A stretch of 64,000 nt of DNA from an uncultured delta proteobacterium (GCA_963763745.1 CAVXQJ010000016.1:321029-385028), one strand, 5' to 3'; positions 8,618-54,362 are shown, counted from the first letter of the stretch. Notes: generated by a model not told the origin, from the letters alone. Numbers and translations are program-made.

Positions 8618-9919
8618 GTGGAGCTCGTTCCTGGATCCGTGTTGCAGGGAAAATACCTGCTGACCTCCAGCATTGGGCGTGGCGGGATGGGCGAGGTGTT
8701 CGCCGCGAAGCGCACGGACGACGGGCGCGAGGTCGCGATCAAAGTCGTCAGTCATCGCATCGTCGACGACACGCTCATGGCGCGCCTCGAGCGCGAGGCG
8801 GTCGCGGCGCGTCGCATCCGCAGCATCTACATCCCCGAAGTCTACGAAGTCGATCGCACGCAAGACGGCGAGCTCTACCTCGTCATGCGTCGCCTTCACG
8901 GCGAGTCTCTCGCGACGCGCCTCAAGGAGCGACGCGCGCTCCACTTCCCGGAAGTCGAGCGCATCGTCGACGACGTGCTCTCCGCGCTCGCCGATGCGCA
9001 CGCCGCGGGCGTCGTGCATCGCGATCTCAAGCCGGCCAATATTTTTCTCGAGCAAGTCGAGGAGCCGACGATCCCGAGCCACACGCCCGCGGTCGGATGG
9101 CGGCCGTCGCTCGAGATCCACGGCATCGAGCGCGCGATGATCCTCGACTTCGGCGTTTGCAAGATGGACGCGAGCGACGGGCCGAAGCTCACGGTGACGG
9201 GCGAATCGGTCGGAACGATTTCGTACATGGCGCCGGAGCAAATCCGCGGCGCGTCGGACGTCGACGGTCGCGCGGATTTGTATTCGCTCGCGATGGTCGT
9301 GTTCGAAGCGATCACGGGGCGCATCGCGTTCGACGCGACGGGGCAGATGGCGATCCTCGCGGCGAAGCTCGAAGGGCGCCCGAAGCGTCTGCGCGATCAC
9401 GCGGTCGTCGCGATCCCGCCCGGGCTCGACGCGCTCGTGAACAAAGCGCTCTCGCGCCGCGCCGAAGATCGCTTCGCGAGCGCGCGCGAAATGCAACAAG
9501 CGTGGCGCGCGCTCGGTCCCGCGACGGAAGCGCCGCACGCGCAGCTCGGCGCAGAGGTGACGGACGCGCACCCGACGCAAACCGCGCTCACGGCGGGCAC
9601 GCACACGCGCATGGGCACGTTCATGCCGCGCCTCGGTTTGTTCGTCGCGTGCGCCGGCGTCTTCGCGTCGGCCGTCGCGATCGCGATGGCGCTCCACAAA
9701 CCGAAGCACGCGGCGGCGCCCGCGCCCGCCGATTTCGTCGACGCGATCGGCACGGCTTCGTCGTCCGCGCCCATCGCGCAACCGCCCGTGCCTTCCGCGA
9801 CGACCATCGAGCTACCCGACGCGCCCGACGCAGGAAAGCGAACCCAACGCGTCGTCCGCCACAGAAACGTACCGCCCGCGCAGACCGGTCCGCACATCAC
9901 GACCGAACCGCGCTATTAA
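8618..9919 (+). CDS. Hanks-type Ser/Thr protein kinase with a C-terminal transmembrane segment
   Basis: GRGGMGEVF, AIKV, HRDLKPANIF, DFG, SYMAPE and a TM helix (LGLFVACAGVFASAVAIAMAL) are all present. Confidence 0.85.
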   Translation: MELVPGSVLQGKYLLTSSIGRGGMGEVFAAKRTDDGREVAIKVVSHRIVDDTLMARLEREAVAARRIRSIYIPEVYEVDRTQDGELYLVMRRLHGESLATRLKERRALHFPEVERIVDDVLSALADAHAAGVVHRDLKPANIFLEQVEEPTIPSHTPAVGWRPSLEIHGIERAMILDFGVCKMDASDGPKLTVTGESVGTISYMAPEQIRGASDVDGRADLYSLAMVVFEAITGRIAFDATGQMAILAAKLEGRPKRLRDHAVVAIPPGLDALVNKALSRRAEDRFASAREMQQAWRALGPATEAPHAQLGAEVTDAHPTQTALTAGTHTRMGTFMPRLGLFVACAGVFASAVAIAMALHKPKHAAAPAPADFVDAIGTASSSAPIAQPPVPSATTIELPDAPDAGKRTQRVVRHRNVPPAQTGPHITTEPRY

Positions 9920-9925
9920 AGGAGC

Positions 9926-11161
9926 GTGAGGGTCTTTCTTTCGGTCGTGGGGCTCGGGCTCGTCTTCGGGCTCATGGCCTCCGGTTGCAGTGGCGACAAC
10001 GCGCAGCCCGACGCAGGCAGCGACGCGAGCGACGAAGGCGACGCCGGGTTCGCCGCGCCTCACGCACCCATGCCGCAGGTCGTGTCGTCCGGCGGATCTG
10101 TGATCGCATCACCGAAGGTCGTGGCGATTTCGTTCCAAGGCGATCCGCTGCAGAGCGACGTCGATGCGTTCGCCTCGCAGCTCGTCTCCGCACCCGCGTA
10201 TTGGAGCGGCGCGGTCGGCGAGTACGGCGTCGGTGCGATCAACGAGACGCCGTATCACGCGCAAGAGACCGCGCCCGCGGGAACGATCAGCGACACCGAC
10301 GTGCAGACGTGGCTGACGAACAAGATCAACACGGACTCGACTTTCCCGAAGCCCGACGCGAGCACGATCTACACGCTCTTTTATCCGGCCGGCACGACGG
10401 TGGCCTCGGGGCTCGACACGACGTGCAACCAGATGCAGGGCTACCACAGCTCGTATCCGCTCTCGTCGAGCGTCAACGTCATCTACGCGATCGTCCCGCG
10501 TTGTCCGCCGCCGCCCGTCGCCGGCGTGACCAACGCCGATCAAATGACCGCGGAGGCGTCGCACGAGCTCGTCGAAGCAGCGACCGATCCGCTCCCATCG
10601 CAGACCCCGGATTACCTCTCGGTGGATTCGGACAGTCACGCGTGGGAGCTCCTCGCGGGCGGCGAGATCGGCGATCTCTGCGCCGCGTTTCCGAACTCGT
10701 TCTACAAAGCGTCCGGGTTCGATCACCTCGTGCAGCGCGTGTGGTCGAACCAAGCCGCCGCGGCGAATCACGATCCGTGTCAGCCCGATGGAACGTCGCC
10801 GTACTTCAACAGCGCGCCTCTCGTCGGCGACACGATCACCGTGCGCGTCGGCGGCGTTCCCATCAAGACGAAAGGCGTCGCGCTCGCCGTCGGCGCATCG
10901 ACGACGATCGAGGTCGATCTCTACAGCGACGCGCCGACGTCCGGGAAGTGGACGGTCTCGGTCGTCGACATCACGAGCGCCTTCTTCGGAGGCGCGCCCG
11001 CGCTCACGCTCACACTCGATCAAACGACGGGTCAGAACGGCGACAAGCTGAACCTCACGATCAAGCTCCTTCGCCTCGTGGTCGGTGGCGCGCCGTTCTG
11101 GATCCAGAGCGATCTCGGGAGCGCGACGACGGTGTGGCTCGGAGCGGTGAATCCCAACTAA
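9926..11161 (+). CDS. Secreted lipoprotein of unknown function (contains an HELVE motif)
   Basis: It has a lipobox (LMASGC-S) and a protein-like 411 aa. It lies 6 nt after the kinase stop. Confidence 0.55.
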   Translation: MRVFLSVVGLGLVFGLMASGCSGDNAQPDAGSDASDEGDAGFAAPHAPMPQVVSSGGSVIASPKVVAISFQGDPLQSDVDAFASQLVSAPAYWSGAVGEYGVGAINETPYHAQETAPAGTISDTDVQTWLTNKINTDSTFPKPDASTIYTLFYPAGTTVASGLDTTCNQMQGYHSSYPLSSSVNVIYAIVPRCPPPPVAGVTNADQMTAEASHELVEAATDPLPSQTPDYLSVDSDSHAWELLAGGEIGDLCAAFPNSFYKASGFDHLVQRVWSNQAAAANHDPCQPDGTSPYFNSAPLVGDTITVRVGGVPIKTKGVALAVGASTTIEVDLYSDAPTSGKWTVSVVDITSAFFGGAPALTLTLDQTTGQNGDKLNLTIKLLRLVVGGAPFWIQSDLGSATTVWLGAVNPN

Positions 11162-11162
11162 C

Positions 11163-12077
11163 GTGGGTCTCCGTCGCGCGATCATCGCATCGCTCCTGCT
11201 CGTCGCGACGGTGGCGCGCGCGCAAAATCGCGACGCGCGCCCCGAGGAGCCGAACGAATCGCAGCAGAGGCAGGAGTCGCGCGCGGCGTTTCGTCGAGGC
11301 GTCGCGGCGCTCGAAAAACAAAAGTGGACGGAGGCGCGCGACGATTTCGTTCGCGCGTACGAGCTCTTTCCGCACCCGAGCATCTTGCTCGACCTCGGCT
11401 TGTCGCGATCGCACGTCGGCGAGTGGGTCCAGGCCGAGCAGGATCTCACGCGCTTCTTGGCGGACGACACCGGCGCGCTCCCCGACGAGCTCCAAACTGC
11501 GCGCGGTGCGCTCACCGAAGTGCGAAGGCACGTCGGGACGATACGCGTGCGCGTCGCGCCCGCCGGCTCGACGGCTTCGCTCGATCACAAACCGATCGCG
11601 CTCGCATCGAGCGACTTCGTCGAGGTCCGCGTCTCCGAAGGCGATCACGAGCTCGAGGCCACGGCGAGCGATCACGACGTGTGGAGCGGGCACGTCGCGG
11701 TCGACGGCGGTGGTACGAAGGTCCTCGACCTCACGCTCACGCCGCACGTCGAGAAAGAAACGCCCCACGGACCCGGACCGCAGCGCATCGCGAGCTTCGT
11801 CTTGTTCGGCGGCGCCGTCGCGCTCGCCGGCTTCGGCGTCTTCGCCGGCGTGCACTCGATCGATCTCGCGAATCAATACAACACGCCGAGCGAGACGAAC
11901 TACCAGAACCCCGGAACGAAATCCGAAGGCATCGCGTACCGCACGGCTGCGGACGTGACGTTCATCGTGGCCGGCGTGTGCGTCGTCACGGGCGTCGTCT
12001 TGTACGTGACCGCGCCTTCGCAGAAAACGGGCGCGAGCGTTTCGCTTTCGCCGTTTGGAATCGCCGGCCGTTTTTGA
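11163..12077 (+). CDS. Kinase-associated membrane protein: signal peptide, TPR-like region, PEGA-like beta domain, TM helix and a conserved ...G-R-F C-terminal tail (paralog 1 of 4)
   Basis: Its architecture is shared with 12500..13426, 56135..57136 and 60924..61856. It starts 1 nt after the preceding gene. Confidence 0.6.
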   Translation: MGLRRAIIASLLLVATVARAQNRDARPEEPNESQQRQESRAAFRRGVAALEKQKWTEARDDFVRAYELFPHPSILLDLGLSRSHVGEWVQAEQDLTRFLADDTGALPDELQTARGALTEVRRHVGTIRVRVAPAGSTASLDHKPIALASSDFVEVRVSEGDHELEATASDHDVWSGHVAVDGGGTKVLDLTLTPHVEKETPHGPGPQRIASFVLFGGAVALAGFGVFAGVHSIDLANQYNTPSETNYQNPGTKSEGIAYRTAADVTFIVAGVCVVTGVVLYVTAPSQKTGASVSLSPFGIAGRF

Positions 12078-12080
12078 TCG

Positions 12081-12503
12081 TCAATCCGTGGCGGCTGCGT
12101 CCGCGCACGCCGCTTGCGATGCGCATCCCGCGACCGTCGTGCACACGGTGCACGCGACGACGCAGTCGTTGAGACACGTCGTCTCCGTTTGATCGCACGC
12201 CTTCTTGCACGGACTGCCCGAGCAGCCCGCGCGACACGTCGTGTCCGCTTGCACGCATCCTGCGCCGCACGTGCCCGCTTCGACCAAACACGGCGTGATC
12301 GTCGCGCACGCTTCGACGTTCACATCGAGTGGCGCGTCGGCGGCGGCGTCCGTGGATCCTTCGGCGTTCGCGTCGGGCGGCGCCGCCTCGTTCATCGCGT
12401 CGTCGAGCCCGGCATCGCCGACGATGCGCGTCTCCGTTCCGACGAGAAGCGTGCATCCTGCAAGCATCGCGGCGAGCACGGCGAGCCTCGCGTGCTGCTT
12501 CAT
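12081..12503 (-). CDS. Small Cys-rich lipoprotein
   Basis: The internal start gives MKQHARLAVLAAMLAGC-T, a lipobox, followed by 18 Cys in 75 aa. It overlaps the stop of the upstream TPR/PEGA gene. Confidence 0.5.
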   Translation of the reverse strand: MKQHARLAVLAAMLAGCTLLVGTETRIVGDAGLDDAMNEAAPPDANAEGSTDAAADAPLDVNVEACATITPCLVEAGTCGAGCVQADTTCRAGCSGSPCKKACDQTETTCLNDCVVACTVCTTVAGCASQAACADAAATD

Positions 12504-13426
12504 CGAAAAGTCCCCGTGATCGACAAGCCAGCGACGCTCGGCGCCATGCGCACCTCGGTGGCGTGCGAAGTGAGCACGAGCACCAGGCCCACGATGGCGA
12601 GCGCTGCGCCGCCGAAGATCATCGCGTCGGCGACGTTCGCTTCGGTCTTCGCGCGCTCGTGAAGATCGACCGCGTGCTGATCGACGCACACGCTCCCCGC
12701 GCATGATGCGTTGCTCTGTCCGTTGTCGGCGAGCGCGAGCCCGCCGAACACGCCGCCGACCGCGGCGGTCGCAACGCCAACGCCGCCGATGACGAACCCG
12801 AGCGTCCGCGTGAACGGCGTGTGCGTGTTCGTGACGACGGGACGAGCCGCGACCTGCACGGTCGGAGTCTTCGCGGCGGGTCCCACGGCGAGCGCGAAAT
12901 CGCGGCGCTCGTTCTCGGCGAGCGTCACCTCGAACACGCGGTCCGCGTGCCCCGGCGCGCGGACGATGAAATGATGCGCGCCGGGATCCATCGGAACGGG
13001 CACGTTCAAGAGCGCGTCACCGAGCGGCGCGCCGTCACGCTCGACCGAAGCGCCATGCGCGTCGAGCACGACGCGAAGCCGTGGAACGCGCTGCTCCAGC
13101 GCCGTGCTGTGCGACTGCACGTAAGCGCGCCTGTCGTCGGCGGGCGGAAGTTGATCGAGCAGCTGATGGAAGTGTTGCCACGCGCTCGCGAGCTTGCCGT
13201 TGCGCTCCTCGCAGTCGGCCAAGTTGAAGAGCGTTCCTTGCGTGGGATCGAGGCGGTAGCTCGCGGCGAACTTCGGACATGCAGCGGCGTAGTTGCCCGC
13301 ATCGGCGTCCGCGCGCCCTTCGCGAAAGAGCGCTTCCGCGCCGACGGCGTCGTGCGTCTGCGCGGCCGCGGCCGATGCGACGCACGATGCGACGACGAGC
13401 GCACGGACCGCGATCGAAAAGCGCAT
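12500..13426 (-). CDS. Kinase-associated TPR/PEGA-like membrane protein (paralog 2)
   Basis: The true start is MRFSIAVRALVVASCVASAAAAQ (a signal peptide) inside ORF 12500..13588. It is followed by a TPR-like region, a beta domain, a TM helix and a ...GTFR tail. The start overlaps the end of the kinase. Confidence 0.6.
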   Translation of the reverse strand: MRFSIAVRALVVASCVASAAAAQTHDAVGAEALFREGRADADAGNYAAACPKFAASYRLDPTQGTLFNLADCEERNGKLASAWQHFHQLLDQLPPADDRRAYVQSHSTALEQRVPRLRVVLDAHGASVERDGAPLGDALLNVPVPMDPGAHHFIVRAPGHADRVFEVTLAENERRDFALAVGPAAKTPTVQVAARPVVTNTHTPFTRTLGFVIGGVGVATAAVGGVFGGLALADNGQSNASCAGSVCVDQHAVDLHERAKTEANVADAMIFGGAALAIVGLVLVLTSHATEVRMAPSVAGLSITGTFR

Positions 13427-13430
13427 GCGA

Positions 13431-14870
13431 TCAGTAACGCCGATCGAACAGGTTCGCCGTGGGCGCCGCGGTCGCGGCCGGCGCGCTCGCATCTCGCGCT
13501 GCATCTCGCGTCGCGGCAGGCGCGCGCGGTTTGTTCTTCGCGACGCGCGGGGACTCGGACACATCGGCCGGCACGATCGGAGAAGCAATCGCCGTCGTCG
13601 TCGTCGTGGCTTGCGTCGCGGCCGTCGTCGTCACGACCTCCGAGGACGGTTGCGGCAGCGCGCTCACGACGGCATCCGGTGCGCTCGCCGCCGTGCGCCG
13701 CTCCTTTACCATCCACGCCGTCGCGGCGATGCACGCGAGCGCGGCGCTCGCGACGATGACCCAACGCGCGCGCGAGCTCTTCGGCGCCGCTGCGATCGGC
13801 GGAACCGATGGCTGCACACCGGCCGCATGCGGCCGCTGCGACCACGTCGGCGAGAAGGACATGTTGACGTCCCGCGACGACGGCGGCTCGCTGGTGCCAA
13901 AACCCGAGCCAAAACCCGATAGCGATGGGTTGCTCAACCGCGGGAGCGGCGGGTTGCTCGGCGTCCTCGGGATGTCCGCTCCGGTCAGCGCGTGAAACGC
14001 GACGTGAACCGCTGCGCCCATCGCGCTCGCGTTGGCCCAACGCGCATCGCGCTCGAGACGCAGCCCACCATCGACGACTGCGACGAGCTCCGGCGTTGCG
14101 TCGGGCAGCACCTTCGAGAGAGACGGCGGCTCTTTCGTGAACGTTGCGGCGATCATCTCGGCGGCCGTCATTTGATCCTGATGAATCATCCGTCCCGAGA
14201 GGAGCGTGAACATCGTCGCCGCGACGCCCCACAAATCGCTGCGCGTGTCGACGAGATCCCAACGACCGCGCGCTTGCTCGGGCGACATGAACGCGGGCGT
14301 TCCCATCGACACGCCCGATTGCGTCGACGTCGGCGTGCGCTCGCTCTCGAGCATGCGCGCGAGCCCGAAGTCGAGCACCTTCACGAGCCCGGCGGTCGTC
14401 ACGAAGAGATTGTCCGGCTTGATGTCGCGGTGGACGATGCCGAGCGCGTGCGCAGCGCCGAGCGCGTCGAGCACCTGCGCGGCGTACGCGAGCACGTCAT
14501 CGACCGGCAAGCGACCGCCGCGATCGCACGCGAGATCCTCGAGCGTTTTTCCCGCGAGGAGCTCCATCACGAGGAACGCCGCGCCGTCCTCGGCGACGTC
14601 GTCGTCGAGCACGCGCACCGCGCCAGGGTGATCCACTTTGTTTGCGAGATAACCCTCGCGGAGAAATCGCTCGCGCATCGACTCGAGCCGCGAGAGCGAG
14701 AGGTCGAGCACCTTCACGGCGCCGCGCATCCCGTTGCGATGCGTCGCTGCATACACCGCCGCCATCCCGCCGAGACCGAGCAGCGAATCGAGGCGCCACT
14801 TTCCGCGAAGGGTCGTCCCCACGCGCGCGAGAGCCTCAGCGTGGCGGGTGTCGGTTTCTTGTTGCGTCAA
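13431..14870 (-). CDS. Hanks-type Ser/Thr protein kinase with a TM helix
   Basis: GLGGMAAVYAA, AVKVL, HRDIKPDNLF, DFG, GTPAFMSPE and a TM helix (WVIVASAALACIAATAWMV) are all present. Confidence 0.85.
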   Translation of the reverse strand: MTQQETDTRHAEALARVGTTLRGKWRLDSLLGLGGMAAVYAATHRNGMRGAVKVLDLSLSRLESMRERFLREGYLANKVDHPGAVRVLDDDVAEDGAAFLVMELLAGKTLEDLACDRGGRLPVDDVLAYAAQVLDALGAAHALGIVHRDIKPDNLFVTTAGLVKVLDFGLARMLESERTPTSTQSGVSMGTPAFMSPEQARGRWDLVDTRSDLWGVAATMFTLLSGRMIHQDQMTAAEMIAATFTKEPPSLSKVLPDATPELVAVVDGGLRLERDARWANASAMGAAVHVAFHALTGADIPRTPSNPPLPRLSNPSLSGFGSGFGTSEPPSSRDVNMSFSPTWSQRPHAAGVQPSVPPIAAAPKSSRARWVIVASAALACIAATAWMVKERRTAASAPDAVVSALPQPSSEVVTTTAATQATTTTTAIASPIVPADVSESPRVAKNKPRAPAATRDAARDASAPAATAAPTANLFDRRY

Positions 14871-14911: not shown

Positions 14912-16699
14912 TCAGTGCGCGAACATCTCTTCTTCGACGAGCGAGGGCGCAATCGTCCCGTGGGCGAGGAGCGCGTCGTGGAAGCGTTTGAGCGAGAACT
15001 GAGCGCCCCATTCGCGCTTCGCGCGCTCGCGAATCGCGAGGATTTTCTGCCGCCCGACGAGGTAACTGGAGGGCTGCGTCGGCGTCTCCGTGTAGCGCTT
15101 CACTTCGCTCACGGCGAGCGCGCGTTCGAGGTGGACCTTGTCGGTCAAGAACGCGACGCCCTGATCGAACGTCATGCCCTTCGTGTGCAGCCCGACATCG
15201 ATCACGATGCGCGCCGCGCGAACGAGCGTCCATTCGAGCTGCATGATGCGCTCTTCATCGGTGTACATGCCGAGCTCGCTCATGAGCTCCTCGGCGTAGA
15301 GCGCCCATCCTTCCGCGAACACCGCAGGTCCCGTCGCTTTGCGCACGACGGACGGATGACGCCGCGCGATTGACAGTTGCAAATGGTGACCCGGATACGT
15401 CTCGTGCGTCGCGGTGTCGACCTGATCGCCGTGGTCGTTCTCGCGAAGCATTTGCTCCTGTTCTTTCTTCGAGGCCTTCAGATCGACCGGCGTGACGAAG
15501 AAAAATCCCTTCGTGACTTTGTCGAACGGCGGCGGCTGATCGTACGCCGCGGTGATCGTCGAGCGTTGGAACGGCGGCGTCTCGATCACTTCGCAGTCGT
15601 CGCCTTCGGGGAGCGTGACGACGTCCTTGTCGACCAAGAATTTCCGCGCGCGCTCGAGCTCGTGCCGGTAGCTCGGGAGCAAGTCGTTCGCGGTGGGATG
15701 ATGCGACTTCACCTTCGCCACGACCTCGGGCCACGACTTGGCCTTCGGGTCGATGCGTTTGGCGATTTCGTTCATCTGCGCGTCGGTCTCGGCGAAGATC
15801 TTCTGGCCCATCGCGACGAGATCCTCCGCGCTCTCGGTCAGGAAGAAATCCTGCTTCAAGAGAAAGTCGAACGTCTCCGCGCCCGCCGCGTAGTCGTCGC
15901 CGCCCATCGGGAGGACCTGCTTCTCGAGAAATTGCTTGTAGTCTGCATAGGCTTTTTGGGCCATTTGCAGGGCTTTTTCGATGCGCGCCTTCTCTTGCGG
16001 CAGCGCGTCTTGGAGGGGCTTTCGCTCGTCGTCGAAGAACTGCTTCGCGCCGCCCGCGGCTTCGATCCCGACTTGCGTCCACACCTTCGGCGGCTTCGGG
16101 ACGTAGAGCCGATTGGAGAGGTTCTTCTTCGCGTCTTCGAGCTGCGCCGGGATCTTCTCGATGCGCGCGAGCGCGTTCTTCGCGCGGTCGGCGGCGGGCG
16201 CGTAGTCGCGCGCCGTCATGAGGAAGATCGCGTTCATCGGGCCCATGTACGTGTCGGGCTTTCGACGCAGCGGGTCTTGCGAGCGCTTCATCTTGATGTC
16301 GACCGCGAGCGCGTGCTCGGTGATCGCGAGATCGGTGAGCGCGGCGCGCGTCGCGCGCGGCTCGGCGAAGCGCTTCTTCAAATCGTAGAGCATCTTCTCT
16401 TCGAGCCCGACGTCGTGCTCGAAGCCCGCGAGCGTGCGATCGTCGAGGTCGGCGTCGCGTTCGTGGAGCCCGAGCTGCGTGGCCGTCTCGGGAGAAATCT
16501 TCACGATGAGATCGACGTACTCCTGCCCGGCGCGCGCGATGGCGGCGTCGTCGCGATCGGCGGGCGGAGCGTCGGGTGGTTTCACGCTCGCGACGGCAGA
16601 CGCGCTCGCTTGCGTGGTGGGGTGGTCAGGCGGGTGACCAGTCTCGGGCGATCCGCACGCAGCAACTGCGATCACGAAGAGCATCGAGTAGCGAAACAT
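14912..16699 (-). CDS. DUF885-family lipoprotein (putative metallopeptidase-like)
   Basis: MFRYSMLFVIAVAAC-G is a lipobox. The THETYPGHHLQ motif is typical of DUF885, recalled from memory. The protein is 595 aa and the start is approximate. Confidence 0.65.
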   Translation of the reverse strand: MFRYSMLFVIAVAACGSPETGHPPDHPTTQASASAVASVKPPDAPPADRDDAAIARAGQEYVDLIVKISPETATQLGLHERDADLDDRTLAGFEHDVGLEEKMLYDLKKRFAEPRATRAALTDLAITEHALAVDIKMKRSQDPLRRKPDTYMGPMNAIFLMTARDYAPAADRAKNALARIEKIPAQLEDAKKNLSNRLYVPKPPKVWTQVGIEAAGGAKQFFDDERKPLQDALPQEKARIEKALQMAQKAYADYKQFLEKQVLPMGGDDYAAGAETFDFLLKQDFFLTESAEDLVAMGQKIFAETDAQMNEIAKRIDPKAKSWPEVVAKVKSHHPTANDLLPSYRHELERARKFLVDKDVVTLPEGDDCEVIETPPFQRSTITAAYDQPPPFDKVTKGFFFVTPVDLKASKKEQEQMLRENDHGDQVDTATHETYPGHHLQLSIARRHPSVVRKATGPAVFAEGWALYAEELMSELGMYTDEERIMQLEWTLVRAARIVIDVGLHTKGMTFDQGVAFLTDKVHLERALAVSEVKRYTETPTQPSSYLVGRQKILAIRERAKREWGAQFSLKRFHDALLAHGTIAPSLVEEEMFAH

Positions 16700-18149
16700 G
16701 AACGCTTCATACTCGACTCGACCAGCCGAAAACATACTCGACTATGCTGGTGGGATGGTTCCGCCGGCGCCGCGCTCGAGCTTCTCGCTCCCCGCGCCGG
16801 GTGACTTGCGCGATCGCGCGGATCGCGCCGGTGGTCACGCGCGGAGGCGCGGAAGGCCGCGCGATCGCTTCATCGCCGAGCGACGCGCGACGCTCCTTCG
16901 TTATCTCGTCCCGTGTCTCGCGCTCGCATCGATCATCGGCGCGTCGGTCGCGGTGGTCGACGTCGCGTTCGCATCGTTCGCACCCGATGAGCGCGCGACG
17001 ATGGCCGAAGCGGGCGCATCGGTCGTGCTCGCGATCGCCGTCGTGCTCGTCCTCGTGCTTCGCCGTCACTTGCGCGCGCTCGTCGTCGTGCACGGCGCGT
17101 CGGCGGTCGCGAGCCAGATCGCTTGGGGTTTTGCGGCGCGGTACACGGGCGGCGCGGCGAGCCCGTATCTCCTCGCGCTTCCGCTCTCGCACGTTCTCTA
17201 CGCGGGCGTCGTCCCGGCCGACGCGTGGGTCGCGGCCGCGAGCGGCGTCGCGTGTTACGGCTCGCTCTTGATCGCGAGCCCCACGTCGCCGCTCCCCGTG
17301 CATCTCGTCGTGCTCGCGTCGGCGACGGGATCGGTCGTGCTCGCGCTCGCGCGTCATCAGCGATCGCTTCGCACGTTCCTCCGCGCGGAGCGGCTCGCGG
17401 CGTCGCTCGCGCGCGTTCGCCGCATGCAAGAGCAGCTCATCGTCGTCGAGAAGCTCGAAGCGCTCCGCGTGCTCGTCGGCGGAATGGCGCACGAGCTGAA
17501 CAACGCGCTCGCGATCGCGATCGCGTCGAACCAACAAGCGACGCGCGATCTCGCGACGAACGCGGAGCTCGCAAAGGCGGCGATCGCACGCGGCGACGGG
17601 GGCCTCCAGCGCATCAAGAAGACCGTCGATCGACTTCGCCGCTTCGCGATGGCCGCCGAGGGCGTGCTCGAGCCCGCCGATGTCGGCGCGATGCTCGACT
17701 TCGCGCTCGAGAGCGCGATCGGCCGCGCGCGCTCGGGCGTCGTCGTCGAGCGCACGTACGATCCGCAAGTCGGCTCGCTCGAAGTGCACGTCTCCGCGCT
17801 CGCCGAGGCGCTCTATCAAGTCGCGCGCAACGCGGTCGAGGCGATGCCCGGCGGCGGAACGATCTCCGCGAGCGTGCGCAAGGAGGGCGATCGCGTCGTC
17901 CTCTCCGTCGCCGATCAAGGGCAGGGGATCTCGCCCGAAGAAATCCCGCGCGTGTTCGATCCGTTCTTCCGCGCGAAGGGAAAGAGCGGCGTGACGAAGA
18001 GCGGGCTCGGTCTGTCCGCGGTGTACGGGCTCATCACGGCCATCGGAGGTCACATCGACATTCGCAGCGAAGTAGGCAAGGGCACCGAAGTCGCGATCGC
18101 GATGCCCGCGCGAAAAACCGCGTTGTCCGTTCGCCCACCGTCCACATGA
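16698..18149 (+). CDS. Membrane sensor histidine kinase. The start is uncertain and probably lies downstream of 16698.
   Basis: There are multiple TM helices, an HisKA H-box (GGMAHELNNAL) and HATPase motifs (DQGQGI, GKSGVTKSGLGL). The stop overlaps the next gene's ATG in an ATGA overlap. Confidence 0.75.
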   Translation: MNASYSTRPAENILDYAGGMVPPAPRSSFSLPAPGDLRDRADRAGGHARRRGRPRDRFIAERRATLLRYLVPCLALASIIGASVAVVDVAFASFAPDERATMAEAGASVVLAIAVVLVLVLRRHLRALVVVHGASAVASQIAWGFAARYTGGAASPYLLALPLSHVLYAGVVPADAWVAAASGVACYGSLLIASPTSPLPVHLVVLASATGSVVLALARHQRSLRTFLRAERLAASLARVRRMQEQLIVVEKLEALRVLVGGMAHELNNALAIAIASNQQATRDLATNAELAKAAIARGDGGLQRIKKTVDRLRRFAMAAEGVLEPADVGAMLDFALESAIGRARSGVVVERTYDPQVGSLEVHVSALAEALYQVARNAVEAMPGGGTISASVRKEGDRVVLSVADQGQGISPEEIPRVFDPFFRAKGKSGVTKSGLGLSAVYGLITAIGGHIDIRSEVGKGTEVAIAMPARKTALSVRPPST

Positions 18150-21100
18150 CGAAAAAAAACGGAGACGTCGTCGGCGCGCGTTTCGTGATCGAGAGCCTCG
18201 CAGGCGAAGGCGGAATGGGTGAGGTGTATCGCGCCAAGGATCGCGAGCGCGGCGCGGACGTCGCGCTGAAGATTTTTCGAACGCGCGCACGCGCGAACGA
18301 ACAGGAAGCGCGCACGCTGCTCGAGCTCGTTCATCCGAACATCGTGCGCTGCGTCGCGTTCGGCACGACCGACGAGGGGAGCGATTTTCTCGCGACGGAG
18401 TGGCTCGACGGCGAGACGCTGCGCGCCCGCCTCGCGCGAGGCGCGGTGCCGATGACGCAAACGATCCGCATCGCGCGCCGCGTCGCCGAGGGGCTCGCCG
18501 CGGCGCACGCGTGGGGAATCACGCATCGCGACGTCACGCCGGCGAACGTGATGCTGCTCCCCGACGGACAAGTGAAGCTCCTCGACTTCGGTCTCGCCGT
18601 TCACGGACGCGAAGGCGGCGCAGCGGGCACCGTCGGCTACGCCGCACCCGAGCAAGCGCGCGGCGATCCGCTGACGCCGCGCGCCGACGTGTTCTCGCTC
18701 GGCTGCGTGATCTACGAGTGTCTCCTCGGAGAGAAACCTTTCGCCGCCGAGACCGACGTCGCGGTGATCGCGCGCATGCTCGAAGGCGACACGGCGCGCG
18801 TGACGGCGCGCCTCACGGGCGTGCCGAGCGCGCTCGTGCGTCTCGTCGCGCGAATGCTCGCAAGCGATCCGGAGGCGCGTCCGCATGGCGCAGCGGCGGT
18901 CGCGTCGGAGCTCGCGGTGCTCGAAGCGCGCGAAGGTCAGAAGAGCGAGCCGGCCGCGACGATCTCGACGACCGACAAAGGGCCGTCCGCATTTCCGAGC
19001 AGTCGATCCGTCACGGACGCGGAGGCGCGCGCGTCGCAAGCGCTCGTCGCGGAGACGGCGGCCGCGGGCAGCGCGCGTTTGAACGCGGAGCTCGAAGCGC
19101 TCGGCGCGGCGGTCACGCGAGCCGGGTCGCGCGTCGTGTGCGTGTGGCAGACCGAGACGTCCGCGGTCGAGCGCGCGGTGCGCGGTGCGCGCGCGGCGCT
19201 CGCGGTGTTGCGATCGGATGCCCACGCGCGCGTCGCGCTCGCCGCGTCGACGTCCGCGTCGATCGCGGAGAGCTCCGCGATCGAGGCGCTCCCCGAGGCG
19301 CCGTCGATCCGCATCGACGCGGACACGGCGCGGCTCCTCGGCGATCGCTTCGTCATCCGTCCCGACGGCGACGAGCTCGTTCTCCTGCGCGAAGGCGCGA
19401 GCCCGCATTCGCGTACGTCGCTGCTCGGACACGAGACGCGATGCGTCGGTCGCGATCGCGAGATCGGCCTCATCGTGTCGACGTTCGAAGAGTGCCGCGA
19501 CGAGCCCGACGCGCGCGTCGTGTGGGTGACGGGCCCACCGGGAATCGGAAAGACGCGCGTGCGCGACGAGGTCATCACGCGCATCGTCAGCGGCGATGCG
19601 CCGCCGCGCGTGTGGAGCGCGCAAGCGGATCCGACTCGCGCGGGCGTCGCGCTCGGCGTGCTCGGGGATCTCGTACGTTCGGCGGCCGCGATCGTGGAAG
19701 GCGACGACGCGCGCCACGAGCACGCCTCGCTCGAGTCGCGCGCGTGCGCGCGCGTCAACGCGATCGACAAGCCGCGCGTCGTCGAGTTTCTCAGCGAGCT
19801 CTTGCGAATCCCCATCGCGGATCCGAGCCCGCAGCTCAAGGTCGCGCGCGAAGAGCCGCTCTTGATGGGCGATCAGGTTCGTCGCGCGTTCGAGGATCTC
19901 GTCCTCGCCGAGCTCGCGGCCGGATCGCTCGCGATCGTCGTCGAGGATTTGCAGTGGGCGGACGCCGCATCCGTTCGCGCGCTGTCCGACGTCGCGCGCG
20001 CGGCGCGCGAAAGGCCGCTCTTCATCTTGCTCCTCGGACGACCCGAAGCGAAAGACACGCTCCTTCGTCTCGTCGCGGATCGTCAGCCGACGGGCGTCGC
20101 GCTCGGCAAGCTCGGAACGAAGGCGATGGAGAAGCTCGTCGCGTCCGCGCTCGCCGGCGCCGACGGACAAGCGATCGACGCGGAGCTCGTCGCGAGCATC
20201 GCGACGCGCGCGGGCGGCAATCCGTTCTTCGCCGAGGAGCTCGTCCGCGCGACGGCGACGGGCGCGGCGCCGATGGCCGCGCTCGCGATGCTCGAGTCGC
20301 GCCTCACGAGCCTCGAGCCCGAAGCGCGCCGCGTGCTCCGCGCAGCGAGCGTGTTCGGACAGCAGTTCGTCTCGAGCGACGTCGCGGTGCTCCTCGGCGA
20401 CGACGGGCAAGGTGCGTCGGTCGAGTTCGTCGATGCGTGGTGCGCGTGGCTCGCCGAGCGCGAGGTGCTCTCGCAGAGCGCGGGCGTGTGGTCGTTCCGT
20501 CACGCGCTCGTCCGCGACACGGCGTACTCGATGCTCACCGACGCGGATCGAAAGACCGCGCACGCGCTCGCCGCCGAGCTCCTCGAGCGATCGCAACGCG
20601 CTCCTGGACCGGTCATCGCCGATCATTTCGCGCGCGCGGGCGAGCCCGAGCGCGCTTCGCGGTGGCTCGCGTCCTCCGCGACCGATGCGCTCGAGGCCAA
20701 CGACTTGAGCGCGTGTGTCGACCTCGGCGAGCGAGCCATCGCAGAGGCCGCGACGGGCGATTGGCGCGGCGAGCTCCTCGTCGTTCTCGCCGAAGCGCAT
20801 CGCTGGCGAGGCGAGTTCGAGCGCTCCGCGGCGTGCTCGCGTGAAGCGATCGATCTTCTGCCCGAAGGCAGCGCGCGGTTCTTTCGCGCCGTCGCCGAGC
20901 TCGCCGCAGCGACGGGAACGGCGGGGCCTCCCGATCAGTTCGAGCTCGCGCTCGCAAAGCTCGCGACCCTGCCGCACGACGACGCGAAGGGCGCCGCGTC
21001 GACCGCGTGCAGCCGCGCGGCGATGCACCTCATCGTGCGCGGCGACCCGCGCGGCGATGTGCTCCTCGCGCGCGCCGACGCGTCCGCGGACTCCAATCTC

Positions 21101-21877
21101 GCGCGCGGTCGCGTGAATCAAGCGTACGCATTCCGAGCAAACATTCGCGGAGAGCTCGAAGAGACGATGCACCGATACACCGCGAGCACGCGCGCGTTCG
21201 AAGCGGCCGGCGATCTTCGCACCGCGTGCGTGCAGGAGCTCAACGCGGCCGCGGCGCTCTGCGAGCTCGGGCGCGACGACGAAGCGCGTACGCGCCTCGA
21301 CCGCGGAGCACGCGAAGCCGACGCGCGAGGTCTCCTCTCCGCCGTCGCGCTCGCGCACCACCTCGGTGGAATCCTGCTCGCGCGCGAGGGCCGCATCGAC
21401 GAAGCCATCGCGGAGCAGCTCCGCGCGATCGAGACGTTCACCGCGCAAGGCAACGCGCGCATGGAGGGAGGCGTCCGGTGTCATCACGCCGAGCTCTTGC
21501 TCAAAGAGAGGAGGCTCGACGAAGCGCTCGCCGAAGCAAAGCGCTCCTGCGATTTGCTCGCGGCGGTCGCGCCGGCGCGCGCACGCTCGCTCGCGGTGCT
21601 CGCGCTCGTTCACATCGCGCGCGGCGACACGCCCGCGGCGCTCGACGCATCGAAGGAAGCGCTCGCGCTCGCCGAGACCGCGGGCGTCGAATCCGGCGAG
21701 GCCATCGTCTACGCCGCGCGCGCCGACGCGCTCACGCTCGCCGGCTCCGCCGAAGCCGCCACCGTGCGCGAAACCGGGCGAAAAAAGCTCCTCGCGCGCG
21801 CGGGCACGATCGCCGACGCGTCGCTCAAGAAGAGCTTCCTCGCCGTCCCGGAGAACGCGCGCCTCCTCACATCTTGA
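18146..21877 (+). CDS. Multidomain Ser/Thr kinase fused to an AAA/STAND-type ATPase with C-terminal TPR repeats (1243 aa)
   Basis: The kinase domain has GEGGMGEVYRA, HRDVTPANV, DFG and GYAAPE. The P-loop is VWVTGPPGIGKTR. A long TPR-like tail follows. The frame is continuous for 3.7 kb. Confidence 0.85.
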   Translation: MTKKNGDVVGARFVIESLAGEGGMGEVYRAKDRERGADVALKIFRTRARANEQEARTLLELVHPNIVRCVAFGTTDEGSDFLATEWLDGETLRARLARGAVPMTQTIRIARRVAEGLAAAHAWGITHRDVTPANVMLLPDGQVKLLDFGLAVHGREGGAAGTVGYAAPEQARGDPLTPRADVFSLGCVIYECLLGEKPFAAETDVAVIARMLEGDTARVTARLTGVPSALVRLVARMLASDPEARPHGAAAVASELAVLEAREGQKSEPAATISTTDKGPSAFPSSRSVTDAEARASQALVAETAAAGSARLNAELEALGAAVTRAGSRVVCVWQTETSAVERAVRGARAALAVLRSDAHARVALAASTSASIAESSAIEALPEAPSIRIDADTARLLGDRFVIRPDGDELVLLREGASPHSRTSLLGHETRCVGRDREIGLIVSTFEECRDEPDARVVWVTGPPGIGKTRVRDEVITRIVSGDAPPRVWSAQADPTRAGVALGVLGDLVRSAAAIVEGDDARHEHASLESRACARVNAIDKPRVVEFLSELLRIPIADPSPQLKVAREEPLLMGDQVRRAFEDLVLAELAAGSLAIVVEDLQWADAASVRALSDVARAARERPLFILLLGRPEAKDTLLRLVADRQPTGVALGKLGTKAMEKLVASALAGADGQAIDAELVASIATRAGGNPFFAEELVRATATGAAPMAALAMLESRLTSLEPEARRVLRAASVFGQQFVSSDVAVLLGDDGQGASVEFVDAWCAWLAEREVLSQSAGVWSFRHALVRDTAYSMLTDADRKTAHALAAELLERSQRAPGPVIADHFARAGEPERASRWLASSATDALEANDLSACVDLGERAIAEAATGDWRGELLVVLAEAHRWRGEFERSAACSREAIDLLPEGSARFFRAVAELAAATGTAGPPDQFELALAKLATLPHDDAKGAASTACSRAAMHLIVRGDPRGDVLLARADASADSNLARGRVNQAYAFRANIRGELEETMHRYTASTRAFEAAGDLRTACVQELNAAAALCELGRDDEARTRLDRGAREADARGLLSAVALAHHLGGILLAREGRIDEAIAEQLRAIETFTAQGNARMEGGVRCHHAELLLKERRLDEALAEAKRSCDLLAAVAPARARSLAVLALVHIARGDTPAALDASKEALALAETAGVESGEAIVYAARADALTLAGSAEAATVRETGRKKLLARAGTIADASLKKSFLAVPENARLLTS

Positions 21878-51609: not shown

Positions 51610-52301
51610 ATGGCACGCATTCTCGTGATCGAAGACGAACGCGATTTGCAGCAGGTGGTCGCGTACAACTTGCGACAAGCAGGTCACGACGTGGCGACGG
51701 CGTCGGGTGGGCAAGAGGGGCTGCGGCTCGCGCGTGAGGAGCCGCCGGATCTGGTGCTCCTCGATTTGATGCTGCCGGACATTCCGGGCACCGAGGTCTG
51801 TCGCGCGCTCAAGCGCGAGCCGGCGACGCAGGGCGCCGCGGTCGTGATGGTGACGGCGAAGGGCGAGGAGATCGATCGCGTCGTCGGGTTCGAGCTCGGC
51901 GCGGACGACTACGTCGTCAAGCCGTTCAGCGTGCGCGAGCTTCTCCTTCGCGTGCAAGCGATCCTGCGGCGCAGCTGGAGCGAGCAGCCCGTCGCGCCGA
52001 CGTTCGAGTTCGGTTGCCTGCGCGTCGATCGCGAGGCGCACCGCGTGTGGGTGGACGGGCAAGGAGGTCGAGCTCACCGCGCTCGAGTTCAAGCTCCTCG
52101 ACGACGCTCCACGATCGCCGCAACCGCGTGCAGACGCGCGGCGCGCTCCTCAGCGACGTGTGGGGCATCGACGCCGACATCACGACGCGCACCGTCGACA
52201 CGCACGTGAAGCGCCTGCGCGAGAAGCTCGGCGCCGCCGGCGAGTACATCGAGACGGTGCGCGGCGTCGGCTACCGATTCGCCGACGCGCCACCGAAGTG
52301 A
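51610..52301 (+). pseudogene. OmpR-family response regulator with two +1 frame changes in the winged-helix region
   Basis: The receiver domain is intact (VIEDERDL...[11 protein letters not shown]...VMVTAKGEE). The C-terminus is split over three frames (VWVDG / [13 protein letters not shown] / [22 protein letters not shown]...[14 protein letters not shown]...VRGVGYRF). The insertions are at gacgGgcaag and ctcGacgacg. Confidence 0.75.
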
Positions 52302-52906: not shown

Positions 52907-54362
52907 ATGAGCGACGACGCAGACGAGCGGGCACAGCAGCGCGTCGGGAGCATGCTCAACGACAAATGGACGCTCGAACGGCTCTCGGCATCGGCGGGAT
53001 GGCGGCCGTGTACGCGGGCGTGCATCGCAACGGCGCGCGCGCCGCGGTCAAGGTGCTGCACCTGTCGCTCGCGCGGCGCACGGAGCTCCGCGAGCGGTTC
53101 TTTCGCGAAGGTTACGCCGCGAATCGCGTGGACCACTCGGGCGTCGTGAAGGTGCTCGACGACGACATCATCGAGGGCGGACCCGACGAGGGCGGCGCGT
53201 TCCTCGTGATGGAGCTCCTCGAGGGCGAGTCCGTCGAGGATCGCATGGAGCGCGGGCCGCCGATCGACGAGCGCGAGCTCCTGCGCGATCACCGCGGCCG
53301 TGCTCGACGTGCTCGCCGCCGCGCACAAGGCAGGCGTCGTCCATCGCGACTTGAAGCCGGAGAATATGTTCCTCGCGCGCGACCCGGAGAAGCCCACCGC
53401 GCCGCCGAAGATCAAGATCCTCGATTTCGGTCTGGCGCGCGTCGCCGAGGCCGGCAAACAAGACGATGGCCGGCATCGCGATCGGCACGCCGTCGTACAT
53501 GCCGCCGGAGCAAGCGGCGGGTCGCGTCTTCGAGATCGACGCGCGCTCGGATTTGTTCGCGCTCGGCGCGTCGTGCTTTCGCATTCTCGCGGGTCGCACG
53601 GTGCACCCCGCGGAGAGCGCGCTGGCGATCTGCTCGCTCATGGCGAAAGATCCAGCGCCGAAGCTCCTCACGCGTGGCGCCGAACGTGTCGCCGAAGACC
53701 GCGGCGATGGTCGATCACGCGCTCGAGTTCAAGCGCGAGGATCGTTTCCCGACGCGACCGCAATGCGCAAGGCGGTCGACGAGGCCATCGCGGATCTCGG
53801 CGGCGACACGATCGAGATCGACAGCGGCATGTACGAGGTCGAGCCGCCGCCTCCGCCGCCACCATCACCACCGCCTCCGCCTCCGCCGCCCGCGAGAGAA
53901 GAGAAACAGGAAGATCAGGAAGATCAGGAAGAAGTCGAGGTCGAGAAGAAGAAGGGTGGGGGGCTCGGGTGGGTGTTCGTGCTGCTGCTTTTGGTGGGCG
54001 GTGGCGTGGCGGCGAAGATTGCGTGGGATCGGCTTCAGCCGACGGCGCCTTTGGGCGTCGTCGATGCGGCGGGATCGGCGACGAACGTCGTCGTGGTCGA
54101 TGCGACGGTGCAAGCAGCCGTCGAAGACGTGCACGCGGAGGAAGTGCGCGAGGCGGCAAGCGAGGATGCTCCGGTCGAGGCGTCCACGGATGCAAACGTC
54201 GAAGACGGCGCGATCGACGCCACGGCGGACGTTTCCATCGACGCACCGGTCGACGCGGAAACCCTCGATGCACGAAGCACATCGATAAGTGCGCCCGACG
54301 CGGGACACCACCGCCGCGACGGCGGCGTCCACCACAACGTGCACCACGGCCACCACCACTGA
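52907..54362 (+). pseudogene. Hanks-type Ser/Thr protein kinase broken by about 5 frame changes
   Basis: The pieces are MSDDADERAQQRVGSMLNDKWTLERL (frame 2), LGIGGMAAVYAGVHRNGARAAVKVL...[14 protein letters not shown] (frame 1), [24 protein letters not shown]...[10 protein letters not shown] (frame 2), [17 protein letters not shown]...[13 protein letters not shown] (frame 0), and then a poly-Pro, TM and acidic C-terminus (frame 0). Confidence 0.7.

Follow-up and report, generated by a model that had tools for sequence, protein, structure and literature searches.

A kinase-linked adaptor family and a proposed three-gene envelope signaling cassette in Polyangia-type myxobacteria

Hanks-type serine/threonine (Ser/Thr) kinases are activated by dimerization and trans-autophosphorylation. 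Myxobacteria have the largest bacterial kinomes, and the signal input to most of their membrane Ser/Thr kinases is unknown. Elsewhere, such input can be supplied in trans: in the RcsF-IgaA, NlpE-CpxA, LpqB-MtrB, BceAB-BceS, and YycHI-WalK systems, a kinase that lacks a sensing domain of its own receives its input from separate envelope proteins, which are often lipoproteins. In Corynebacterium and Mycobacterium, a conserved operon encodes a lipoprotein sensor (GlnH), a membrane transducer (GlnX), and a Hanks-type Ser/Thr kinase (PknG), and coupling of the kinase to the membrane component is proposed to occur by docking at a TPR surface (PMC8546545). Here we describe a family of exported adaptor proteins that is linked to membrane Ser/Thr kinases and, usually, to a lipoprotein gene. 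Four members are encoded in a 64,000-nucleotide stretch of DNA from an uncultured delta proteobacterium (GCA_963763745.1 CAVXQJ010000016.1:321029-385028), which is called the window below.

Comparative analysis suggests, with a probability that we would put near 55%, that this adaptor family is the hub of a three-gene envelope signaling cassette in Polyangia-type myxobacteria, the parts of which would bind one another. Many myxobacterial membrane Ser/Thr kinases apparently carry no sensor domain, and for one large class of them the cassette would provide a testable answer to the question of signal input. The sensor and the docking hub would be separate proteins, joined to the kinase through short terminal motifs. 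Literature searches on PEGA with kinase, Mkap proteins, the myxobacterial kinome, and Hanks with lipoprotein and TPR returned no paper that describes the cassette, the adaptor family, or the C-terminal motif of the kinases.

The family profile was searched against 1.84 billion cluster representatives (50% identity). A related-locus scan, seeded by a 13-sequence alignment, confirmed 366 loci, of which 80 were taken with 10-kb flanks (individual loci are cited by L numbers). These 80 derive from metagenome-assembled genomes (MAGs) of Polyangiaceae, Labilithrix, Byssovorax, Haliangiales, and Sandaracinaceae and from Labilithrix luteola DSM 27648, whose cassette is in L072. They hold 81 family genes, 78 of which have at least 1.5 kb of upstream sequence.

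Adaptor architecture and kinase linkage

A sequence-only reading of the window had proposed four paralogs that share one architecture. Open reading frames (ORFs), a hidden Markov model (HMM) built only from homologs outside the window, and AlphaFold2 models all bear this proposal out. The four adaptor genes, with HMM scores, and the three intact kinase genes in question are as follows.

Paralog A, 11163..12077, plus strand: A-type adaptor with tail ...FGIAGRF, lacking both Cys pairs (E=5e-30, full length)
Paralog B, 12500..13426, minus strand: canonical adaptor with both Cys pairs and tail ...LSITGTFR (E=2e-108)
Paralog C, 56135..57136, plus strand: C-type adaptor with tail ...LGLVGRF (E=9e-40)
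Paralog D, 60924..61856, minus strand: canonical adaptor with both Cys pairs and tail ...GASFSGTF (E=7e-84)
K1, 8618..9919, plus strand: bitopic Hanks-type Ser/Thr kinase of the A-type cassette (Pkinase E=3e-38)
K2, 13431..14870, minus strand: active bitopic Ser/Thr kinase (Pkinase E=5e-35) with HRD, DFG, and the catalytic Lys present
K3, 54363..56138, plus strand: bitopic pseudokinase upstream of paralog C (Pkinase E=6e-14)

Linkage between the adaptors and kinases extends well past these genes. When adjacency is defined as a same-strand Pkinase ORF ending between -120 and +300 nt upstream of the family gene, 50 of the 78 genes with sufficient upstream sequence lie directly downstream of a kinase. 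Allowing rearranged orders, 62 of all 81 family genes are kinase-linked, 53 to a kinase upstream and nine to a kinase downstream, at about 1.1 or 3 kb. The same 1.27 Mb contains 19 unlinked kinases, a density at which chance would produce about 0.25 adjacencies; the enrichment is more than 200-fold. Furthermore, the three genes of the cassette remain together across three different gene orders. These figures, together with the family-wide conservation of the tail (below), support the earlier suggestion of a dedicated kinase-partner family, which thereby survives the refutation tests set in the sequence-only reading. The accompanying claim that a kinase or pseudokinase gene lies immediately upstream of every paralog is correct for B, C, and D (the kinase of D being frameshifted), but A is separated from its kinase by the gene for a 411-amino-acid (411-aa) lipoprotein. 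The start of C overlaps the stop of K3, B lies directly 3' of K2, and no in-frame kinase-adaptor junction was found in the window.

The linked kinases have a uniform layout in which the kinase domain is followed by a juxtamembrane region of about 67 aa, one transmembrane helix, and an ectodomain with a median length of 100 aa (interquartile range 93-106, range 52-134). Pro, Ala, Ser, Thr, and Gly make up 63% of the ectodomain residues, and the linked kinases therefore lack a folded sensor. All four catalytic residues of Hanks-type kinases (Lys, HRD...N, DFG) are retained in 60 of 65 linked kinases. Conservation is concentrated at the extreme C terminus: relative entropy reaches 1.5-3.3 bits over positions -1 to -7, compared to 0.2-0.6 bits over positions -8 to -30. 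Arg occupies position -2 in 53 of 60 tails and Asp position -4 in 33 of 60, with Phe, Tyr, Leu, or Pro at -5. Such a pattern is the signature of a short linear motif, formed by the last seven residues, at the end of a disordered tether. Unlinked kinases in the same loci carry no such C-terminal motif.

The kinases of the window fit this description. K1 has one transmembrane helix and a 74-aa low-complexity ectodomain ending ...HITTEPRY, and the 91-aa Pro/Ala-rich ectodomain of K2 ends in the canonical motif NLFDRRY. K3 has HGE in the HRD position, lacks both DFG and the catalytic Lys, and carries an 87-aa ectodomain that ends PTYDPMGI, which is the C-type tail motif.

Four loci (L006 18459..20261, L009 19176..20642, L016 18856..20451, and L024 18589..20349) encode another class of membrane kinase, located downstream of the adaptor at a distance of about 8.5 kb. 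Its members end in a different conserved motif, RPIGT-x-H-[ND]-GFTKL[KR]. Because of this second motif, C-terminal docking motifs, with other receptors, may be a wider trait of Polyangia kinases.

All four adaptors have a signal peptide with an AxA cleavage site and a coding-type GC content at third codon positions (GC3) of 0.83-0.87, in a window whose overall GC content is also high (62%-72%). The database gene call for C begins at the ATG at 56138. Paralogs B, C, and D are only 19%-23% identical to A, and the HMM matches all four from end to end with no other match in the window. AlphaFold2 predicts the same architecture for B (predicted local distance difference test score, pLDDT, 89) and for C (pLDDT 85), which is the most divergent paralog and has no Pfam match, and the shared architecture can thus be taken as real once the number of membrane helices is corrected. 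In both models, five TPR-type helices (about 2.5 TPRs) and a beta-sandwich, at pLDDT 90-98, are followed by a low-confidence linker, two long helices that form a hairpin, and a terminal beta-hairpin. The single transmembrane helix of the sequence-only reading is replaced by a hydrophobic two-helix hairpin with a loop of about 38 aa, the helices of which have 19-residue Kyte-Doolittle means of 1.85 and 2.0. A positive-inside analysis of this hairpin revealed no clear topology.

The domain names proposed earlier stand on structure prediction and fold search, since Pfam support stays below threshold. TPR_2 matches A and B at 24.8-25.8 bits against a cutoff of 27, and PEGA (PF08308) matches only B among the four paralogs (E=0.0086; 16.4 bits against a cutoff of 20.8), with precomputed PF08308 matches present on some adaptor homologs. 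The helical region has the tandem 34-residue helix-turn-helix repeats of the TPR superfamily, with its packing positions 4, 7, 8, 11, 20, 24, 27, and 32. Fold search groups the beta domain with carboxypeptidase-regulatory or transthyretin-like sandwiches, for which "PEGA-like" is the appropriate description. No NCBIfam model matches the paralogs, and the adaptor family as such has neither a Pfam nor an NCBIfam model.

The four tails end in GRF (A and C), GTFR (B), and GTF (D), in line with the sequence-only reading, and their conservation extends to the family at large. Among 350 members, the last residue is aromatic in 89% (Phe 72%, Trp 16%), compared to a background of 4.6% for Phe, Trp, and Tyr together, and 61% end in G-x-[FWY]. 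In the same sample, a Cys pair in the TPR region (C50/C72) is present in 92% and a C-x(2-7)-C pair at the tip of the hairpin in 91%. The G-x-F tail itself is modeled with low confidence (pLDDT 48-75). An outer-membrane beta-signal was considered for this tail and rejected: Phe or Trp is terminal in 89%, but Gly occupies position -3 in 61% and no barrel is predicted. No adaptor matches an outer-membrane protein in Pfam, and the structure models show two long helices in the membrane segments. Similarly, none of the four paralogs is matched at E<=0.1 by the glycine-zipper 2TM or SlyB-like models (PF05433, PF13488).

The family is very large: its profile matches 22,642 cluster representatives at a threshold of E<=1e-30, and 72,599 when the threshold is relaxed to E<=1e-10. 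Named members, from Polyangiaceae, Labilithrix, and Sorangium, are called only "hypothetical," "PEGA domain-containing," or "TPR repeat" proteins. Paralog A has 149 A-type homologs at E<=1e-10, the closest being 60%-73% identical, and paralog C has 528 C-type homologs at E<=1e-15. Two architectural variants retain the C-terminal hairpin-plus-tail module. P0220 (902 aa) is Lys-rich and has seven tandem TPR modules before the sandwich, the hairpin, and a GKF tail, and P0121 (521 aa) has a duplicated TPR-sandwich unit. Also, unrelated secreted proteins near orphan adaptor genes (L003 13377..14216 and L005 12922..13827) end ...GMTAGLVGWF and ...GVTAGVLGWF. This G-x-x-G-W-F ending resembles the adaptor tail, so a C-terminal aromatic tail may occur in other protein families of these bacteria.

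Cognate subfamilies and the third gene

Adaptor clades map one-to-one onto classes of kinase tail, as listed here.

Main clade: hydrophobic-[FY]-D-[RK]-R-x (FDRR[YH])
Labilithrix clade: GIP[DT]TRD
Clade with the kinase about 3 kb downstream of the adaptor: DVF[DG][ED]RL
Clade with the kinase about 1.1 kb downstream of the adaptor: NPL[DN]GR[LHF]
Byssovorax pair: DPLG[TS]RH
A-type subfamily: ...HITTEPRY or ...IVAEPRY, conserved in the orthologs of L081-L083
C-type subfamily (pseudokinases): [TK]-Y-[DE]-P-[ME]-G-I

On the adaptor side, the most conserved residues outside the core fall at canonical groove positions of the TPR A helices, namely F34 and R38 in TPR1 and G64, N68, D71, and E74 in TPR2. 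N68 is presumably equivalent to the clamp Asn of Hop TPR1. Where the kinase tail has Arg at -2 (58 pairs), the adaptor retains N68 in 56 cases, D71 in 54, and E74 in 52. In the three pairs without such a kinase tail, only 2 of 15 strict groove residues are kept, whereas conserved residues elsewhere in the protein are kept at 47 of 93 positions (Fisher p=0.01).

The charge of the groove differs between subfamilies. B-type adaptors have an acidic groove (E74 in 83%, E73 in 58%; helix G-T-L-L-N-L-A-D-C-E-E) and partner tails that are basic, with Arg at -2. In C-type adaptors the groove is basic (R66 in 98%, R71 in 100%, R74 in 88%, K38 in 87%; helix N-A-R-L-Y-V-A-R-T-L-R-E), and the partner tail, Y-[DE]-P-x-G-I, is acidic and free of Arg. 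Paralog C conforms to this pattern with R66, R71, and R74 in helix A of TPR2. Groove charge thus reverses together with tail charge across subfamilies, which is indirect evidence that the groove recognizes the tail. The matched classes, in which FDRRY goes with an acidic groove and YDPxGI with a basic one, suggest a simple specificity code that could insulate paralogous pathways from one another and that might be of use in engineering.

Both divergent subfamilies retain their own gene contexts. The A-type syntenic block consists of an AMP-binding enzyme, the kinase, a lipoprotein of 362-410 aa, the A-type adaptor, and DUF885, and paralog A is syntenic with its counterparts in L081 and L082. 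C-type adaptors always lie 3' of a pseudokinase. The K3 orthologs of L085, L086, and L087 are HGE pseudokinases or lack the HRD/DFG patterns, and they end TYDPMGI, TYDPEGI, and KYEPEGI.

The sequence-only reading took no account of a third gene, which in the window is represented by the following.

Lipoprotein of 411 aa, 9926..11161, plus strand: located between K1 and A, with lipobox LMASGC and GC3 0.85
LipoB, 12081..12503, minus strand: 140-aa Cys-rich lipoprotein whose start overlaps the B stop by ATGA
LipoD, 59473..60924, minus strand: 483-aa lipoprotein whose start overlaps the D stop (TGATG)
Beta-rich secreted protein of 180 aa, 57142..57684, plus strand: non-lipoprotein directly 3' of C, ending ...IGATFFL

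The first ORF 3' of the adaptor gene has a lipobox in 49 of 68 loci and starts about -21 to +8 nt from the adaptor stop. As judged from this spacing, the lipoprotein gene is usually translationally coupled to the adaptor gene upstream. The mature N terminus of the cassette lipoproteins follows the consensus C-x-x-[LIVM]-[LIVA]-G-[IVTA]-[ED]-D-x-x-[LV], and Lys never occurs at +2. A six-frame scan of 1.34 Mb for a lipobox followed by C-x-x-hydrophobic-hydrophobic-G-hydrophobic-[DE], a pattern that leaves out positions +9 and +12 of the consensus, found 55 instances, of which 48 lie directly 3' of an adaptor gene. This strand is followed by a linker rich in Gly, Ser, Ala, Pro, Thr, Asp, and Glu, and then by a hypervariable domain of 79-816 aa. 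RCC1-like propellers, FGE-sulfatase and LTD domains, Stig1-like or other Cys-rich repeats, and Hint modules are among the variable domains, many of which have no Pfam match. In the full set of 81 adaptors, 34 are accompanied by both a kinase and a motif-bearing lipoprotein.

LipoB and LipoD illustrate the range of these proteins. The mature N termini of LipoB (CTLLVGTETRIVG) and LipoD (CSSLLGVDFDKF) each present the conserved strand, a candidate docking strand. LipoB-equivalent genes are found 3' of the adaptor in L001, L006, L009, L016, L024, and L044. LipoD contains many Cys-rich repeats of the CGxxxDGCGxxxxCG type and a C-terminal Hint-like (intein/hedgehog-type) module, after which the protein ends directly. 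The Hint match is below the Pfam cutoff (E=1e-3), and the motifs CF...DG and TxNHP are present. Orthologs of LipoD lie 3' of D-type adaptors in L037 and L085 (9791..11245), and the architecture is conserved in both genomes.

The other two third genes depart from this arrangement. The 411-aa lipoprotein has no Pfam or NCBIfam match, and in L081 and L082 its orthologs likewise separate the kinase gene from the A-type adaptor gene. It was rejected as a general neighbor of the family, its position being conserved solely within the A-type subfamily. The 180-aa protein next to C has a weak OMP_b-brl match (E=0.022) and an ortholog at the same position in L085. A further connection is provided by an unlinked kinase in L020 that carries an FGE-sulfatase domain in cis. 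The same domain is found on clade-5 cassette lipoproteins, and this Pkinase-FGE-sulfatase fusion therefore constitutes a Rosetta-stone link between kinases and domains of the cassette-lipoprotein type.

Proposed mechanism and its alternatives

The proposed cassette would have three components. The first is a bitopic Hanks kinase or pseudokinase with a disordered Pro/Ala-rich tail of about 100 aa that ends in a seven-residue C-terminal motif. The second is the exported adaptor, which would be anchored by its C-terminal helical hairpin and would expose the TPR region and PEGA-like sandwich to the periplasm. The third, usually a lipoprotein, would present a strand of about 12 aa after its lipidated Cys, followed by a flexible linker and a hypervariable globular domain. 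The gene linkage, the motifs, the fold, and the subfamily-specific covariation of motif and groove are shown above; physical binding, the direction of regulation, and the membrane that holds the adaptor are inferred. The concave TPR groove may clamp the free C-terminal motif of the cognate kinase, and the lipoprotein may dock by its N-terminal strand on the membrane-proximal part of the adaptor, where the conserved G-x-F beta-hairpin tail is a candidate docking site. Binding of a ligand to the variable lipoprotein domain would then change the oligomeric state or conformation of the adaptor, which in turn would alter how the tethered kinases cluster and trans-autophosphorylate. Another possible route for the signal is direct helix-helix contact between the hairpin and the kinase transmembrane helix. 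An inner-membrane location for the adaptor is slightly more likely than an outer-membrane one because both hairpin helices are hydrophobic, and in this topology the hairpin tail and the lipid-proximal strand of the lipoprotein would, on geometric grounds, share the periplasmic face.

Several observations weigh against this proposal. The role given to the G-x-F tail is a guess, and in the inner-membrane model the conserved Cys pair of the loop would be cytoplasmic, which is unusual. Not every locus holds all three genes: 28 of the 81 adaptors have a kinase and no motif-bearing lipoprotein, 12 have a lipoprotein and no kinase, and seven have neither. The third gene of the C-type cassette encodes a small non-lipoprotein, with DUF481 or DUF4833 proteins at this position in L086 and L087. 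The arguments from charge reversal and groove loss depend on few independent lineages. Also, mutual information between tail positions and adaptor columns was not enriched in the TPR region (mean maximum 0.65, compared to 0.67 for PEGA and 0.64 for the hairpin), a test that is uninformative because shared phylogeny dominates the signal.

A different location for the adaptor would change the geometry of the cassette. If the adaptor were held in the outer membrane by a glycine-rich, SlyB-like hairpin, next to an outer-membrane lipoprotein, the kinase tether would have to span the periplasm. The terminal Phe or Trp of 89% of adaptors, as in outer-membrane proteins, would fit this arrangement, as would the narrow range of tether lengths and the lipoproteins' lack of Lys at +2, a residue that serves as an inner-membrane retention signal in Myxococcus. 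The Cys pair of the loop (91%) matches in conservation that of the TPR region (92%), which is clearly periplasmic; this similarity suggests an oxidizing compartment for the loop, and the C-type third genes encode small beta proteins resembling those of the outer membrane (weak OMP_b-brl and DUF481 matches). However, helices as hydrophobic as these should act as stop-transfer segments in the Sec translocon, Pfam offers no glycine-zipper or outer-membrane-protein match, and Gly at -3 stands where a canonical beta-signal has a hydrophobic residue, with no beta-barrel predicted. Moreover, we know of no route by which a helical hairpin that is not lipidated could enter the outer membrane. We consider this placement unlikely, if worth keeping in view. 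Somewhat more doubtful is the full version, in which the length-constrained Pro/Ala line of the inner-membrane kinases would cross the periplasm and end in a heptapeptide hook bound in the TPR groove of the outer-membrane-associated adaptor, with a swappable lipoprotein receptor attached to the same adaptor by another short motif. If true, it would represent a very abundant and hitherto unrecognized trans-envelope signaling architecture in soil Myxococcota, in which codiversification of hook and groove would insulate tens of paralogous cassettes per genome.

The remaining explanations give up one or more of the proposed contacts. If the adaptor served mainly as a substrate or effector of the kinase, phosphorylated for example on the hairpin loop, the tight operon linkage would be that of a kinase-substrate pair. 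A [KR]-[ST] dipeptide in the second loop helix, present in roughly 60% of a 54-sequence alignment as counted by reading, would be cytoplasmic under the inner-membrane model. But the candidate Ser/Thr is not invariant, and the whole C-type subfamily is paired with dead pseudokinases that retain the conserved tail motif. The kinase motif, its covariation with groove charge, and the coupled lipoprotein would be left unexplained, and this role is improbable. The same holds for the view that the adaptor is primarily an anchor or chaperone for polymorphic surface lipoproteins (Cys-rich, Hint-containing, or RCC1), with the kinase as a merely coregulated neighbor. In its favor are the 12 of 81 adaptors that have a lipoprotein without a kinase, the translational coupling of the two genes, and the hypervariable lipoprotein domains, some with Hint modules, which are typical of polymorphic or autoprocessing proteins. 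Nevertheless, the 28 adaptors that have a kinase without a motif-bearing lipoprotein point the other way, kinase tail classes follow adaptor clades, and the linked kinases are themselves devoid of a sensor domain. Finally, there might be no physical coupling at all, only inherited gene order in a kinase-rich lineage and motifs that act as unrelated sorting or processing signals. These genomes are indeed very rich in kinases, and the evidence is all comparative. This explanation is already disfavored, and in our estimate very improbable, given an enrichment of more than 200-fold relative to the density at which unlinked kinases occur in these loci, the persistence of linkage through three gene orders, the absence of the motif from unlinked kinases, and the joint shift of motif class, adaptor clade, and groove charge.

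Among the roles suggested by the sequence-only reading, which were substrate, anchor, and sensor, that of an anchor or adaptor is best supported and that of a substrate least, and the sensor role fits the co-encoded lipoprotein better. Overall, that reading is incomplete rather than wrong: the third gene and the C-terminal motif of the kinase were overlooked and the membrane helices miscounted. The addition of two conserved motifs, the third gene, and matched tail/groove subfamily pairs turns it into a specific and testable mechanism.

Neighboring genes and comparison with known systems

Two further kinase genes in the window are interrupted by frameshifts.

Kfs1, 52966..54362, plus strand: kinase gene upstream of K3, broken into three frames (tblastn frames 1, 2, 3)
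Kfs2, 61858..63300, minus strand: kinase gene upstream of D, in at least five frame segments (tblastn frames -2, -1, -3, -1, -2)

Both are paralogous to K2. The C-terminal end of Kfs1 lacks the canonical motif, and its ortholog in the syntenic locus L085 is called as an intact gene of 458 aa. Kfs2 encodes a transmembrane helix and a 93-aa ectodomain, and the C-terminal frame of the gene ends ...SMMNERF, which is compatible with the canonical motif. Its counterpart is a kinase gene at the same position in L085 that runs off the end of the locus. Homopolymer sequencing error was considered as the cause of the frameshifts and found unsupported, given that the sites lie outside homopolymer runs and long neighboring ORFs are intact. 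Kfs1 and Kfs2 may be real pseudogenes, or they may be assembly or polishing artifacts between paralogs.

Regulatory genes of other types are located nearby. An OmpR-family response regulator gene (51610..52300, plus strand) adjoins the C-type cassette, as do similar genes in L085 (2119..2808) and L086 (1838..2527). The L085 and L086 regulators have Response_reg and Trans_reg_C domains, with no histidine kinase gene called nearby in either locus. Such a regulator could act downstream of the Ser/Thr kinase as one of its targets. Elsewhere in the window, a histidine-kinase-like gene (16698..18149, plus strand) is followed by a gene for a very large cytoplasmic kinase (about 18131..21877, plus strand). 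Counterparts of the latter in L081 (8760..10912) and L082 (7699..10906) combine Pkinase and AAA_16, and the ORF in the window runs about 1,000 residues past the kinase domain. Both genes keep their synteny with the A-type cassette in two further MAGs (L081 and L082) and appear to be unrelated to the adaptor family.

The system is most likely a variant of accessory-protein-coupled Ser/Thr kinase signaling, based on a very large and unannotated protein family of soil myxobacteria. Defining this adaptor family would improve the annotation of many metagenomic proteins.

The closest analog of the cassette, in logic only, would be the glnX-glnH-pknG operon, the components of which are not homologous to those described here. 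PknG is a soluble cytoplasmic kinase with a C-terminal TPR domain, GlnX has no TPR, and GlnH binds amino acids. In the cassette, by contrast, the kinase is bitopic and lacks TPRs, the repeats are periplasmic and belong to an adaptor with a two-helix hairpin, and docking is proposed to involve the extreme C terminus of the kinase. The cassette lipoproteins carry RCC1, FGE-sulfatase, LTD, or Cys-rich domains and are not solute-binding proteins like GlnH. Systems of the RcsF-IgaA type are two-component systems or phosphorelays, with neither homology to the cassette nor docking by a C-terminal motif. Hanks kinases with fused PASTA, PEGA, TPR, or FGE-sulfatase domains (PknB/PrkC type) use the same kinds of extracytoplasmic modules, but their sensor is covalently attached, whereas in the cassette it would be split over two additional proteins and joined by short motifs.

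The proposed docking of the kinase tail may be similar to that of the carboxylate-clamp TPRs, such as Hop/Sti1 TPR1 with the EEVD of Hsp70, SGT, RPAP3, CHIP, and PEX5 with PTS1. The adaptor shares with the Hop TPR1 type a three-TPR fold with a conserved concave groove. Unlike these proteins, the adaptor is periplasmic and stabilized by a disulfide, and its TPR region, of only 2.5 repeats, is joined to a beta-sandwich and a membrane hairpin; the Lys/Arg clamp residues are only partly equivalent, and peptide binding is putative. The terminal aromatic residue recalls the C-terminal beta-signals of outer-membrane proteins, from which the adaptor differs by Gly at -3 and by having no predicted barrel. 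Similarly, a Gly/Ala-rich helical hairpin beside a beta-sandwich is found both in the adaptor and in the SlyB/Pcp glycine-zipper 2-TM lipoproteins, but the adaptor has no Pfam glycine-zipper match, no lipid anchor, and helices that are more hydrophobic.

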